Part shown: positions 4,951 to 60,357 of the stretch, in pieces
Layout: each line of letters opens with the position of its first letter
Numbering within the stretch: position 1 is the first letter of the stretch
Origin: Acetivibrionales bacterium
GTDB taxonomy: Bacteria > Bacillota > Clostridia > Acetivibrionales > JBMNNH01
Length of the DNA: 64,000 bases
Reading direction: 5' to 3'
Assembly (NCBI GenBank): GCA_050953835.1
Contig: JBMNNH010000007.1
Coordinates: 14,607 to 78,606, forward strand
The notes under the pieces: generated by a model
The model's input: the letters and a program-made list of their open reading frames with translations, nothing else
Databases searched by the model: none
Told to the model about the DNA's origin: nothing
Translations under genes and position numbers: made by a program

Positions 4951-5299
4951 CTATGCAATTCCCTTCTATGGACAATTCTATTTTAAGCCTGCTATAATAT
5001 AATTATACACATAATTCTCCAAACTCTGCAACAGGATTTGCGAACAGGTCATACATAGAAAAATTCACCCTTGCGAACACAGCTACTAAATTATTTAGTT
5101 AACCCTGCCATATTTGTATATCCTGATTGCTAATGCTTCAAGAATTGGATTTGGTGTGGTTTAAACTCAGGAATTTGGATATTATTATATAATAGCTACT
5201 AAAACATAATAATTGGTGCTATTTGCATTGAAAACGAATTTTTTTGACAATAGAGTATAATTAAGTATATACTTTATTAATGATAGGAGGTATGATCGA

Positions 5300-22699: not shown

Positions 22700-22812
22700 T
22701 TGGCATTGGTGCATTTTTTCTTTATGCCTATTAAGGGTATATAGAAGTGTGGGAAAAAATGTATTGACAATTAGCTCTGAAATATTATAGTATATAATCA
22801 TAAAATAAATAA

Positions 22813-22897
22813 ATCTGGGGAGCTGGTTATTACCGGCTGAGAGGGAACCTTTTGTTCCGACCCATATAACCTGAACTGGATAATGCCAGCGGAGGTA
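22813..22897 (+). promoter_or_regulatory. TPP (THI-box) riboswitch
   Basis: CTGGGGAGC...GGCTGAGAGGGAACC...ACCTGAACTGGATAATGCCAGCGGAGG matches the THI element core. A thiT-like gene lies downstream. Confidence 0.85.
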
Positions 22898-22922
22898 GCA
22901 TATTGTTAGTAGCATATTGTTA
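22895..22922 (+). repeat. Perfect 14-bp tandem duplication (GTAGCATATTGTTA x2)
   Basis: Read directly. It spans the 3' edge of the TPP aptamer and the linker to the terminator. Confidence 0.9.
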
Positions 22923-23755: not shown

Positions 23756-23860
23756 ATTTCTTCATTTTTTTTCAACATTATTTGCGTTTTGCTATTGACT
23801 TTTTGTTGTTTGGTGTCTATTCTTAATTTAAGGCTTTAAAACATCATATTGATACAATTG

Positions 23861-24021
23861 GATAGAGGCGCGGGCGTTACGAGTAATCTGTTATATATGG
23901 CTTGGCACTGTAACAGACGAAAAGATAGACCGTCGAAGTTTCGGTTTCCTGCCAGGAGGATCCGTTGCTGGGCTGTTGCAGAACATGCATCAGACTGTCA
24001 CTTAAGGGTGGAGAGCTATCG
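23861..24021 (+). promoter_or_regulatory. Lysine riboswitch (L-box)
   Basis: GATAGAGGCGC at the 5' end, internal CCGTCGAAG, and 3' ACTGTCA...GGTGGAGAGCTATC closing P1 (GATAG/CTATC). Confidence 0.8.
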
Positions 24022-24034
24022 TGTATAATGTAAT

Positions 24035-33931: not shown

Positions 33932-34036
33932 TGTAAAGCTTTATTTGAATAATCCGTCACCTATGCTGCCTATAAGACATAATATATAATGAAACAACTG
34001 ATATACAGGGCCTATGAATACAAGGCGAGGAATATT

Positions 34037-34903
34037 ATGAACAAGATTATTTATTCTATCGGAATAGGAGTTTCATCAAGCATAATTGGTTTTATTATGG
34101 AGTACTTTGGAAGTATACAGGCATCTTATATGATTCTGTTGGCACTGATAACCATAGACACATTAACGGGTATAGTAAAGGCAATAAAGTATAATAGGTT
34201 CAGTATTTTTGGATTGAAAAAATTTGTTAAGAAGATAGTTACTTATAGTCTATCCATACTTGTAGTGAGATTGCTTGAACTGGCTATATTGCCTTTGTTT
34301 GAAACCACTCTGCTGTCCAATATAATTGTATCCTTACTTGCTATCACTGAAACTGTAAGCATACTGAACAATCTGTCTCTTCTTGGGGTGCCTATTAAAT
34401 CGAACCTAATAAAAAGGATGATTGGGAAAGTAAAAATTCCGGGAGTAGGAGAAGCCATCGAAAATATTGATAAGACCTATGAAAGCTATATTGAAGAAAT
34501 TGATGAAATAGTTAAATACCAAATATCTTCTTTTGCAAATGAATGCGTAAAGAAGCTTCTGGAAATTAAGTTTGAAGTGTGGAGGAGCGTTGTAAAGAAG
34601 ATTATTATTGAGATCAGCGAGCACAATTCAGGGAATAATGAACTTTTATATTACAAAGTCATGTACTTAATAGAATCTGCATTTAAAGAGATGCAAATGG
34701 ATTGGCAGAATGCAAATGTCGATCAGGAATGCATATGCAGATTCAGTTCAGTCCATAAACCCAGGGTTGATAAATTGATGGAAAAGGTCAGTGATATTTG
34801 CTTCAGTAATGAAGGAATACATGTAAAAAAACTGAAACTTATTGAGAGCATAGTAGTTATACTGTACCAGACTATAGTTGATGCACGAAGAGATTTGATG
34901 TAG
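34037..34903 (+). CDS. TcdE/LL-H-type holin family (Phage_holin_4_1-like) domain fused to a ~150-aa C-terminal soluble extension
   Basis: ILLALITIDTLTGIVKAIKYNRFS...LLAITETVSILNNLSLLGVPI parallels the TcdE pattern recalled from memory (ISFDTLLGCLSAIKSRKFNS...ILYESVSILKNLCLCGLPVP). ATG 34037 follows GAGGAA. The ORF-track start 33989 has no SD. Confidence 0.6.
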   Translation: MNKIIYSIGIGVSSSIIGFIMEYFGSIQASYMILLALITIDTLTGIVKAIKYNRFSIFGLKKFVKKIVTYSLSILVVRLLELAILPLFETTLLSNIIVSLLAITETVSILNNLSLLGVPIKSNLIKRMIGKVKIPGVGEAIENIDKTYESYIEEIDEIVKYQISSFANECVKKLLEIKFEVWRSVVKKIIIEISEHNSGNNELLYYKVMYLIESAFKEMQMDWQNANVDQECICRFSSVHKPRVDKLMEKVSDICFSNEGIHVKKLKLIESIVVILYQTIVDARRDLM

Positions 34904-36743: not shown

Positions 36744-37586
36744 CTATCGATGATGTTTAAACTTGATAATCCGGTCAAAGGCAAGCGTTGCATTGATTTC
36801 CGCTCCAATAAGTATTATTATACTGCACCAATACAGCCATAATAACAGAATAATGATTCCTGCTATACTGCCGTATGTTGTTGTATATATGCTGAAATTG
36901 TTTATATAGAACGAGAAAACAACTGATAATAATACCCAGCCTATTACTGCAAATGCAGATCCGGGTAAAACCTGCTTCAATTTCAGGCGCTTGCCGGGTA
37001 TATAGTAGTATACTGATACAAACACTATTGTCATACTCAATAAGGGTGTAAAATACCTTATAAAATCCCAAGCTGTTTTAAACAGTTTTGTAATGCCCAA
37101 CATATTGAACAGGTATTCTCCCAATACTTTGCCCAGAACCAGCAAAACAAATGAGAATAGAATTACAAGTGCGATGCCAAGAGTAAATAGGATGGATATT
37201 CCGTTCAATTTCCAGAAAGGGCGGGTTTCTTCCTGGTCATAAGCTTTGTTTATACCTTTTATTAGAGCACATACCCCTCGTGATGCAGTCCATAAAGTAG
37301 CTATCATACCAAAGGATAAAATGGTTCTGCGGTCTGATGACATTACCTGCCTTCGCATTTCAACAACCAGGCCGTATGTTTGCGGGGGCATCAGGTGTTC
37401 CAGAGTTTTTATGCTCTCCTCATGGGTAAGAGGTGTATAGCTTATTAGAGTTATTAAAAAAATTAAAAAAGGAAAGAAAGATAATATAAGATAATAGGTC
37501 AATTGTGCTCCCAGAGCAGCTACTTCGTCCTCTTTATATCTTTTTGCAACGTTTTTGAAGAAACTTTCGTATTTTTCAATATTCAC
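36744..37586 (-). CDS. YihY/virulence factor BrkB family membrane protein
   Basis: GAQLTYYLILSFFPFLIFL and the C-terminal LLWLYWCSIIILIGAEINA signature. Confidence 0.8.
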   Translation of the reverse strand: MNIEKYESFFKNVAKRYKEDEVAALGAQLTYYLILSFFPFLIFLITLISYTPLTHEESIKTLEHLMPPQTYGLVVEMRRQVMSSDRRTILSFGMIATLWTASRGVCALIKGINKAYDQEETRPFWKLNGISILFTLGIALVILFSFVLLVLGKVLGEYLFNMLGITKLFKTAWDFIRYFTPLLSMTIVFVSVYYYIPGKRLKLKQVLPGSAFAVIGWVLLSVVFSFYINNFSIYTTTYGSIAGIIILLLWLYWCSIIILIGAEINATLAFDRIIKFKHHR

Positions 37587-37742
37587 AAATGCCCTCCTAG
37601 AATTTCAGAAAAACTTATTTACATGCAAAGTTTTTTCAAGTAGAGTTTATTGTTCTTTATAATATATGGTTCTACATTAAATATATTATTATGAGGATGA
37701 GAATAGTGCATATATTACTTATATTACACAGTAAGAAATAAG

Positions 37743-37973
37743 AAGCATGGGGGGCAAGGGATTATGTGTCCTGGCTAACGGAAAACTTCACCGGGTGTTT
37801 GTAATACTTTAGTCTGCAAAGAAATCCTACCCGGCTTGAGACGCCATCCGTGGCGTCCAAGACCGGCTTCTGCCGTCCGTGGCAGAAATTACGGATTTCT
37901 TCTTGCCTAAAGCATAACAAACACAACGGCTTGTTTTAATGTTATCCGGACAATAATTCCCTGCCCCATGCTT
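37743..37973. ncRNA. Candidate structured element, copy A (long imperfect stem + three-way junction); strand unresolved, in the opposite orientation to copy B
   Basis: Ends AAGCATGGGG.../...CCCCATGCTT pair. The junction core 37821-37899 holds hairpins CCGG-CTTG-GACGCC/GGCGTC-CAAG-CCGG and TCTGCC/GGCAGA. GC-rich block in AT-rich intergenic DNA. Confidence 0.55.
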
Positions 37974-38017
37974 TTAATGTATACTTCTGTACTTATATAC
38001 TGCTGTAGTACGTAAGT

Positions 38018-38236
38018 GAGTCCTGTTTCCTGTATGGTAATAAAACATTAAGGTAAGCCTTAGAGATGCTTAAGGACTTGTTCAAGAAAAATGCGTAATT
38101 CGCGTCATGGACGACGCGAGCCGGACATGGGCTACATGGACGTAGCCTCATGCCGGGTAGCATTTTTCGCCGAATAAGGCCTTTAGAATCTCTTGGCGAG
38201 ACATTACGTTATATGGACATACAAGGAACAGGACTC
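38018..38236. ncRNA. Candidate structured element, copy B (paralog of copy A, inverted)
   Basis: Ends GAGTCCTGTTTCCTGTATG/CATACAAGGAACAGGACTC pair. The junction core 38086-38168 holds hairpins CGCGTC-ATGGAC-GACGCG and CCGG-CATG-GGCTAC-ATGGAC-GTAGCC-CATG-CCGG. Confidence 0.55.
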
Positions 38237-38339
38237 CCTAAACACTTTGCACACCAAATTTGAAATAACTACCACTGCGCAGTTTAAGCACAAAATTCAG
38301 TTATAAAGGGCCGCCCTTCTGTGACGGACCGATTGAATA

Positions 38340-38960
38340 TTATCGTGCAGCTTTTATAAACATCTGCGTCCAGTAATACACTCCTCTGCTGTTTTGAGCT
38401 ACACCCACACCTATTTGGTTATAAGTTTGACTTAGTATATTGTTCCTGTGTCCGGTGGAGTTCATCCACATGGTCATTACTTCCTTGGGTGTACGGGCTC
38501 CATATGCAATGTTTTCACCGGCTGCAGTATACCTTATGCCGAAGTCTTCCATCATTTTAAACGGAGAACCATATGTGGGAGAAGTATGCGAAAAGTACCC
38601 CTTCTTAGCCATATCTGCCGACTTATACCTTGCAACTCTTGAAAGCTCCCAATTTTGCGTGAGTGGCTGGAGGCCTCTTTTAACCCTTTCTGCATTTACT
38701 ATTTCAATCACCTGGTTTTCCAGTGCTTTAACGTTGTCTATGGTTGGTATGTTTAACTTTTGTCCAGGATAGATTAAATTGGGGTTCTTAACCTGTGGAT
38801 TTGCAGATATTATTTCGCTTACACCTATTTGGTGCTTTACAGCAATTTTCCACATACTGTCTCCCTGTTTAACAATATATGTTGTAGTTTGTGCACATAC
38901 CTGTAAAGGGAAGAGCAGCACAGCAGCAATAGCAATTATTAAAATAATTTTTCTCTTCAT
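38340..38960 (-). CDS. Secreted LysM + CAP/SCP (YkwD-like) domain protein
   Basis: Signal peptide. LysM (YIVKQGDSMWKIAVKHQIGVSEIISANP...IYPGQKLNIP). CAP domain (VNAERVKRGLQPL...GENIAYG...WMNSTGHRNNIL). Confidence 0.8.
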   Translation of the reverse strand: MKRKIILIIAIAAVLLFPLQVCAQTTTYIVKQGDSMWKIAVKHQIGVSEIISANPQVKNPNLIYPGQKLNIPTIDNVKALENQVIEIVNAERVKRGLQPLTQNWELSRVARYKSADMAKKGYFSHTSPTYGSPFKMMEDFGIRYTAAGENIAYGARTPKEVMTMWMNSTGHRNNILSQTYNQIGVGVAQNSRGVYYWTQMFIKAAR

Positions 38961-60114: not shown

Positions 60115-60357
60115 TAAAAAAGGATAAAAGCAGTGATTAAGAGGAGTAATCAGCTGAAGCCAAAAGAGAGGGGGAACCGCAGGCTGGAAGTTTTCCCAGG
60201 ATGAAGGCTGATGAAGGTAGCTTATGAGCTCTGCAGCTGAAAATAAGTAGGCTGCAGCGGTAAGAAACCGTTATATCAAGGAGTTGTCCCTTATAAAGGG
60301 AAAGTTTGGTGGTACCGCGGAAACAGCCTTTCGTCCAATGGATTGAAAGGTTTTTTT
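60115..60357 (+). promoter_or_regulatory. T-box leader (probable Val specifier GUA) with terminator
   Basis: AGAGAG distal motif; a specifier-loop candidate GAAGGUAGC; T-box sequence TTTGGTGGTACCGCGG (60305-60320); terminator CCTTTC-(12 nt)-GAAAGG + T7 (60327-60357). valS lies downstream. Confidence 0.8.

Follow-up and report, generated by a model that had tools for sequence, protein, structure and literature searches.

Two divergent TwoAYGGAY RNA copies in an Acetivibrionales genome, an apparently dispersed structured element with paired candidate protein-binding loops

The TwoAYGGAY motif (RF01731) goes back to Weinberg et al. (2010, Genome Biol 11:R31; PMC2864571), who reported it from human-gut metagenomes and from Clostridiales and Gammaproteobacteria, classed it as a probable RNA that is 'cis-reg: n' and not a riboswitch, remarked in their supplement that its closing P1 stem 'is often very large', and aligned at least five copies from Psychromonas ingrahamii. 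Its two loops were matched to a CsrA-binding-site model by Gardner and Eldai (2015, PMC4333381), who proposed a CsrA-binding small RNA (sRNA) of Clostridia and whose paper also mentions a tandem G.A internal loop in hairpin 2. The structure of the motif was refined with R-scape in Rfam 15, a preprint from 2025 still describes it as 'relatively unexplored', and we found no experimental test of it in the literature searched. Here we describe a 64,000-nucleotide stretch of an Acetivibrionales bacterium (contig JBMNNH010000007.1; hereafter the window), in which a gene-free gap holds two structured blocks, copies A and B, that are almost certainly diverged copies of this RNA. Both the element and the idea that it is a CsrA sponge are already in print; on balance we lean towards the view that the two blocks are inserted copies of a dispersed structured-RNA element whose loops are a candidate site for a protein dimer, CsrA foremost.

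The Csr/Rsm sRNAs (CsrB, CsrC, RsmX/Y/Z) carry GGA in ANGGAN hexaloops on short G-C-closed stems, as TwoAYGGAY does, and multi-copy gene families are common among them; the two sites of TwoAYGGAY are, moreover, spaced to suit one CsrA dimer. They differ in that the known sponges have ~5-22 GGA sites where TwoAYGGAY has 2, in that the ~100-bp rod of TwoAYGGAY is unlike anything in those sponges, and in that neither a promoter nor a GacA/UvrY-type box nor a terminator was found at the window copies. By analogy, TwoAYGGAY may function like a Csr/Rsm decoy, and it is placed in Rfam clan CL00106, which we take to be the clan that also holds the Csr/Rsm RNAs. To our knowledge no CsrA sponge RNA has been established in Firmicutes, in which the known antagonist of CsrA is the protein FliW; a first-pass annotation of the window had said as much, and in the literature searched we likewise found no report of a CsrA-titrating RNA in Clostridia. 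The dispersed repeats of the REPIN/REP, ERIC, Correia and bcr1 types resemble the element in another way, being non-coding, intergenic and multi-copy, forming long imperfect hairpins, occurring as half-copies beside full copies, and being present in one relative and absent from the next. Those repeats, however, are plain hairpins that lack a conserved three-way junction and loops conserved across phyla, and most of them have a defined target-site duplication or a cognate RAYT or transposase, neither of which was found for TwoAYGGAY.

The gap measures 753 nt and lies between two minus-strand open reading frames (ORFs), one ending at 37586 and the other starting at 38340, in agreement with the boundaries first assigned to it. 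The genes that flank it, and the elements within it as defined from the minimum free energy (MFE) fold, the Rfam match and the core sequence pattern, are as follows.

36744-37586, minus strand: BrkB/YihY-family membrane protein gene (Pfam PF03631)
37743..37973, minus strand: copy A, full rod with long imperfect closing stem and three-way junction (MFE fold)
37781..37939, minus strand: copy A, full-length RF01731 match (51.7 bits, model positions 1-168)
37846..37851, minus strand: copy A hairpin 2 hexaloop ACGGAU (core pattern and fold)
37875..37880, minus strand: copy A hairpin 1 hexaloop ACGGAC (core pattern and fold)
37974..38017, no strand: 44-nt spacer between the divergently oriented rods (read from the sequence)
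38018..38236, plus strand: copy B, full rod-shaped element (MFE fold)
38049..38207, plus strand: copy B, full-length RF01731 match (46.1 bits, model positions 1-168)
38107..38112, plus strand: copy B hairpin 1 hexaloop AUGGAC, AAGGAC in strain variant L001 (pattern and fold)
38136..38141, plus strand: copy B hairpin 2 hexaloop AUGGAC (core pattern and fold)
38340-38960, minus strand: gene for a protein with LysM and CAP domains (LysM-CAP)

When the whole window was scanned with Rfam, copy A (51.7 bits) and copy B (46.1 bits) each matched RF01731 over 168/168 positions, above its gathering score of 43 bits, and our own covariance model, R1, gave them 135.7 and 136.7 bits, respectively. All of the defining RF01731 features that were examined are present, namely the score, the two AYGGAY loops, the P1-closed junction and the covariation, and the copies further resemble the described family in their three-way junction, very long P1, Clostridia host, occurrence more than once per genome and want of a fixed gene neighbour. 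They differ from it in that the rods (~225 nt) run ~35 nt per side past the 168-position model, in that they form a divergent pair 44 nt apart, and in that the G.A loop of hairpin 2 has been replaced. The first-pass annotation had taken the element to be new and had named a match to an existing Rfam family as a refuting outcome; with both copies giving just such a match, the claim of novelty was lost. A second family, chrB-b (RF03086), was discarded as sub-threshold noise (20 bits against a gathering score of 36.5).

The two copies are ~75% identical to one another and point apart, with the 5' ends of the Rfam model 109 nt apart and the rods 44 nt apart; as copy A is read from the minus strand and copy B from the plus strand, transcription of their RNAs would diverge. 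Their GC content is 0.46-0.47, against 0.30-0.31 in the flanking intergenic DNA, so the contrast that had led to their being described as GC-rich blocks is real, but it is a moderate one, the neighbouring LysM-CAP gene also being at ~0.44.

Folding of the minus strand of 37735-37985 (copy A) gave an MFE of -115.7 kcal/mol, compared with -64.2 +/- 4.5 in dinucleotide shuffles (z = -11.6), and folding of the plus strand of 38010-38245 (copy B) gave -102.9 kcal/mol (z = -10.0 against dinucleotide shuffles); for neither copy did any of 200 shuffles reach the native stability. Each MFE structure is a long imperfect rod of ~225 nt, the tip of which is a three-way junction with two hairpins, and the paired regions span 37743-37973 and 38018-38236, coordinates identical to those of the folded blocks first proposed. 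The three-way junction, with its conserved junction strands and loops, is the one in the curated Rfam model. Both cores fit the pattern AYGGAY-N6-AGCCGG-N11-AYGGAY-N11-CCGGGTA, for which the chance expectation is 0 matches, and each copy thereby presents two GGA loops ~29 nt apart.

Between copies A and B, compensated changes number four in hairpin 1, one in the outer and three in the inner part of hairpin 2, and one in the closing helix, or two if that helix is lengthened by one pair; no uncompensated change was found in the junction helices. The total of 9-10 obtained in this recount, all compensated, accords with the nine originally counted. Across 14 sequences from five subfamilies the covariation score was 0.408, as against 0.147 in shuffles (reached by 0/500), the covariation of the junction helices was far above that of every slid control, and hairpin 1 was 97.6% paired, with 5/6 of its pairs altered on both sides. 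The compensated helices indicate selection on a folded single strand, as the first-pass annotation had proposed, and the covariation across five subfamilies lends that proposal further weight.

The first-pass annotation had been unable to tell from G-U versus A-C counts which strand is folded, and on this point our results go further. The AYGGAY strand folds better than the opposite strand by 3.7 kcal/mol in copy A and by 3.9 kcal/mol in copy B, and the same advantage was seen in 16/16 related copies (3.5-16.5 kcal/mol), which represent about five independent subfamilies. In the inner rod of the 12 copies from JAKORA01, a related metagenome-assembled genome (MAG), one-sided changes created a sense-strand G.U pair eight times and an A.C pair once, and 7/8 of the changes that made a G.U pair were C-to-T on the sense strand. 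The junction core of these copies varies at 10/71 positions, compared with 48/149 in the arms, and variation in their hexaloops is confined to the Y positions. RNA-level selection would produce such an asymmetry, as would transcription-associated deamination of the non-template strand, and from either source the AYGGAY strand would be the transcribed strand. On these statistics the structurally constrained strand is the one that shows AYGGAY in both loops. In hairpin 2 of the window copies, Watson-Crick pairs and two single-U bulges replace the tandem G.A internal loop, the inner pairs at that site being CUUG/CAAG or CAUG/CAUG where the MAG relatives have CUGA/GAAU; the G.A loop is accessory and not defining, and without it the window copies still pass the full-model threshold.

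A degenerate core-pattern scan of 185,579 species-representative genomes returned 20 loci, of which 18 are credible and lie in three Bacillota/Clostridia MAGs (12 in JAKORA01, 4 in JANQLN01 and 2 in JAMNYG01). The two others, L011 from Acidobacteria and L016 from Latescibacterota, were rejected as apparent chance matches in GC-rich coding DNA with no junction fold, and L016 gave only a partial match, of 29 bits, to our own model. JAKORA01 holds at least 12 full-length copies, 92-95% identical over ~215 nt, together with 5'-half and 3'-half fragments and further diverged copies, one 8-kb locus having up to five, same-orientation tandems among them; the ends of the copies are terminal inverted repeats, ATGGAGCAGCG...CGCTGCTCCAT, which form the base of the rod. 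Copies from JANQLN01 pass the Rfam threshold (51.7 and 50.8 bits), and all four lie at contig ends, sometimes at both ends of one contig, the usual behaviour of assemblers at multi-copy repeats. The closest match to window copy B is L010, a copy from JAMNYG01 with an Rfam score of 39.9 bits. All of the copies are intergenic and occur in either orientation between convergent, divergent or tandem neighbours, and an all-against-all ORF comparison found no real protein that recurs within 8 kb of the 18 loci; the apparent linked proteins or transposases that it returned were spurious frames running through the repeat itself. In its Bacillota relatives the element behaves as a dispersed, non-autonomous intergenic repeat, and the window blocks are, we consider, quite probably dispersed or inserted repeats as well. 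Many genomic copies had been listed beforehand as a refuting outcome, and this was borne out in part: the copies are indeed numerous in relatives, but they covary, and no target-site duplication was found.

In searches of mobile-element collections, the region 37740-38240 had no blastn match among 50,697 phage or 72,556 plasmid records, and the core pattern had none in IMG/VR viral contigs. The Logan contigs of the window organism, L002 and L003, end at the outer edge of copy B (~38225), and assemblies also end at elements in L004, L006, L009 and L019; given that assemblies break at the elements, short-read assemblies would undercount the TwoAYGGAY family and truncate its copies. The flanks of JAKORA01 copies (L005, L007, L008, L012, L014, L015, L017 and L020) are a mosaic of other short repeat modules, among them a conserved ~50-nt block upstream and an ~80-nt block downstream that contains GAGCTGCAAAACCTGCCTCAAGCGAAC, and the arrangement recalls BIME-like composite repeats. 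One JAMNYG01 copy (L018 5256-5417, minus strand) has an extra, nearly perfect hairpin of ~90 nt inserted in the 3' arm of the P1 rod (L018 ~5170-5260).

A metagenome search for close relatives of the BrkB protein found L024, the nearest syntenic relative, in which the BrkB gene product is 78% and that of the upstream LysM-CAP gene 92% identical to those of the window, with the same gene order and orientation; more distant BrkB homologues are non-syntenic. The L024 spacer is 205 nt long, against 753 nt in the window, holds only a perfect 29-bp hairpin, and gave no TwoAYGGAY match with either Rfam or our own model. Judged from this one relative, the two window copies would be a lineage-specific gain, or else would have been lost in L024, and a spacer without the element is what one would expect of a dispersed repeat rather than of a conserved regulator acting on the BrkB/LysM-CAP pair. 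Given that the element is a dispersed repeat in relatives and is absent from the L024 gap, these comparisons lead us to conclude that the window copies are not a regulator built for the BrkB/LysM-CAP locus.

Exact insertion boundaries were sought in L024, the intergenic DNA of which proved too diverged for alignment. The outer 10 bp of its hairpin (~474-536), AAGCAAGGGG/CCCCUUGCUU, resemble the base of the copy A rod, AAGCAUGGGG/CCCCAUGCUU (37743-37752 / 37964-37973), and are the same except for one compensated pair. This shared base could reflect insertion into an older hairpin, or the collapse of a long palindrome; against an origin of the copy A outer stem in an older terminator is the homology of the remaining rod to the JAMNYG01 element.

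In the JANQLN01 copies an 11/12 match to the sigma-70 consensus (TTAACA-17-TATAAT) lies on the sense strand ~15 nt before the model start and is part of the repeat unit; a terminator-like site was not seen in these copies. The promoter-like site supports stand-alone transcription in the JANQLN01 lineage. In the window the promoter scan found only two 9/12 sites, on the plus strand to the left of copy A, which is the level expected by chance. Divergent promoters within the 44-nt spacer were considered, but none passed the scan (the best found by eye was 8/12), and the terminator scan found no intrinsic terminator at either rod end.

In systematic evolution of ligands by exponential enrichment (SELEX), the consensus selected by CsrA is ACARGGAUGU, and in Firmicutes csrA adjoins fliW in flagellar operons. 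The window encodes MotA/MotB, which suggest a flagellated organism, and by inference the organism probably has the fliW-csrA module. Because the TwoAYGGAY consensus of loop and closing pair, CAUGGAUG, is nearly the SELEX consensus (the motif match itself is published, PMC4333381), because CsrA occurs in both phyla that have the motif, and because of this probable fliW-csrA module, CsrA is the best candidate for the partner of the two loops, an assignment that we put forward tentatively and would not press. ANGGAN hexaloops on G-C-closed stems do resemble the high-affinity CsrA/RsmE site, so that the idea of CsrA binding, raised again in the first-pass annotation, is chemically reasonable but is not new, having been proposed for TwoAYGGAY in PMC4333381.

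On the reading towards which we lean, the window copies would have arrived by insertion, or by insertion and then inverted duplication. If transcribed, the element would form a very stable rod-shaped RNA, and its two ANGGAN hexaloops, side by side on the three-way junction, could be held by one RNA-binding protein dimer; were CsrA that dimer, each copy would be a one-dimer decoy. A bolder form, in which a mobile, non-autonomous element spreads high-affinity CsrA-binding RNA modules, ready for use, among the genomes of clostridia and its copy number sets the CsrA-buffering capacity of the cell, strikes us as a long shot.

A number of observations weigh against the view that the blocks are inserted copies of a dispersed, functional RNA. 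Only 2 copies occur in the 64-kb window (when our own model was run with filters off, the next best hit reached 12.9 bits, E = 0.2), and the JAKORA01 copies reach only 25 bits against Rfam, over the junction core only, so that the repeats of that genome are TwoAYGGAY-like rather than curated members. No transposase was found within 8 kb of the 18 loci, and no target-site duplication was found at the ends of copies A and B, nor a consistent one in the JAKORA01 alignment; copy number, fragments and a single empty site accordingly carry the case for mobility. The scans found no suitably placed promoter-like or terminator-like site at the window copies. With two GGA sites, each RNA falls far short of the number in established CsrA sponges, and a search of the window for csrA or fliW found neither.

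Strain variation adds to these difficulties. The strain variant L001 differs from the window at 19/5,330 positions, with none of the differences in 3.9 kb of parE/parC and 17/19 within 37999-38604, which looks like a recombination tract that covers the spacer and copy B and continues into the 3' part of the LysM-CAP gene. Copy A has one substitution, of the loop-closing C at 37852 to A, which breaks the closing pair of hairpin 2, and the spacer (37974..38017) has four. Copy B has seven in 218 nt (3.2%): those at 38101 and 38155 break core pairs, that at 38108 turns loop AUGGAC into AAGGAC and hence a Y into an A, those at 38115 and 38233 make sense-strand G.U pairs, and the remaining two fall at unpaired positions. 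As this rate is no lower than that of the neighbouring non-coding DNA of the same tract, purifying selection on copy B is not evident, and this copy may already be decaying. Even so, from the window to L001 copy B retains its sense fold (-102.9 to -104.5 kcal/mol) while its antisense fold weakens (-99.0 to -93.2 kcal/mol), in line with constraint on the AYGGAY strand.

Several of these facts would be expected if the element were a selfish palindromic DNA repeat, akin to a miniature inverted-repeat transposable element or a REPIN, in which any RNA is incidental and there is no host function. The rod and loops would then be read as folded single-stranded DNA by an unlinked transposase or HUH-type nuclease, and selection on folded DNA could equally keep the arms compensated; the high copy number, half-element fragments and mosaic flanking repeats of JAKORA01, the copies at contig ends in JANQLN01, the empty site in L024, the intergenic position in any orientation with no linked gene, the pair-breaking changes in copy B between strains that go uncompensated, and the window copies with neither promoter nor terminator in the scan are all consistent with it. 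On the other hand, target-site duplications are missing both from the window copies and from the JAKORA01 alignment, and neither a transposase nor a RAYT-like gene occurs within 8 kb of any of the 18 loci. The near-consensus promoter inside the JANQLN01 repeat unit, and the sense-strand excess of C-to-T changes and G.U pairs, which is what transcription or RNA-level selection would give, also argue against it. Furthermore, the invariant A-GGA loop letters are common to Clostridia and Gammaproteobacteria (Rfam consensus; Psychromonas alignment), and conservation across phyla is easier to square with a partner that is itself universally conserved, as CsrA is, than with a transposase confined to one lineage. 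We regard the selfish-DNA explanation as rather unlikely, although it is the main rival and deserves to be taken seriously.

It is also conceivable that the element is a structured RNA for a dimeric RNA-binding protein other than CsrA, with the two loops as half-sites. The presence of two loops of identical, strictly conserved sequence on one three-way junction suggests some kind of symmetric partner, and the tandem G.A loop in hairpin 2 of most family members is foreign to known CsrA sites; yet no candidate protein is linked to the element at the 18 loci, CAUGGAUG differs very little from the consensus that CsrA selects in SELEX, and the window copies have lost the G.A loop while retaining their AYGGAY loops, and we hold this to be improbable. 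Less probable still would be a cis-acting intergenic hairpin of the REP/ERIC kind, which might act as a bidirectional terminator, stabilise the 3' end of the LysM-CAP mRNA, or form a 5' leader for the BrkB/YihY gene. Copy A has the same orientation as the two flanking genes, its distance upstream from the BrkB start is 159 nt, and a U-rich run, CUUCUUAUUUCUU, comes after it; in L024 the corresponding position is occupied by a plain 29-bp hairpin. However, neither rod ends in a terminator that the scan accepted as valid, L024 manages without the element, a cis role leaves the conserved AYGGAY loops unexplained, and the family has no consistent neighbour or orientation and was rated 'cis-reg: n' (Weinberg 2010, PMC2864571).

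Annotation of the two copies is routine, in that any Rfam/Infernal pass labels both of them, and the CsrA idea dates from a 2015 publication. What is added here is that the element behaves as a dispersed repeat and is missing from the equivalent site of one relative, that its AYGGAY strand is constrained, and that in at least one lineage it has a built-in promoter-like site, results which also caution against taking the BrkB/LysM-CAP locus to have a dedicated regulator. The value lies in the function of the family and not in this locus: if TwoAYGGAY were to bind CsrA, it would fill a long-standing gap as an RNA antagonist of CsrA outside Proteobacteria, and were the mobile-decoy reading true it would be the first such antagonist in Firmicutes and the first CsrA decoy to propagate like a transposable repeat.

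Some further features were seen in passing. In L018, from a Bacillota MAG with TwoAYGGAY-like copies, an OLE RNA (558.7 bits) lies at 831-1468 on the plus strand, and the segment directly after it, 1493-1676, matches part of the L010 repeat region of the same MAG. In the window, a 304-aa protein with an N-terminal Phage_holin_4_1 domain is encoded at 33989-34903 on the plus strand, directly upstream of motA/motB. Other Rfam matches above the gathering score in the window were:

22806-22915, plus strand: thiamine pyrophosphate (TPP) riboswitch
23855-24026, plus strand: lysine riboswitch
60124-60341, plus strand: T-box leader

Distant homologues of the BrkB/YihY gene lie downstream of an azaaromatic (yjdF) riboswitch, which the window gene is without. 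The distance from riboswitch to BrkB homologue is ~170-450 nt in L028-L030 and ~2.5 kb in L026/L027, with the riboswitches placed as follows.

L026, 1416-1515: yjdF riboswitch
L027, 1416-1515: yjdF riboswitch
L028, 3451-3549: yjdF riboswitch
L029, 370-469: yjdF riboswitch
L030, 192-292: yjdF riboswitch

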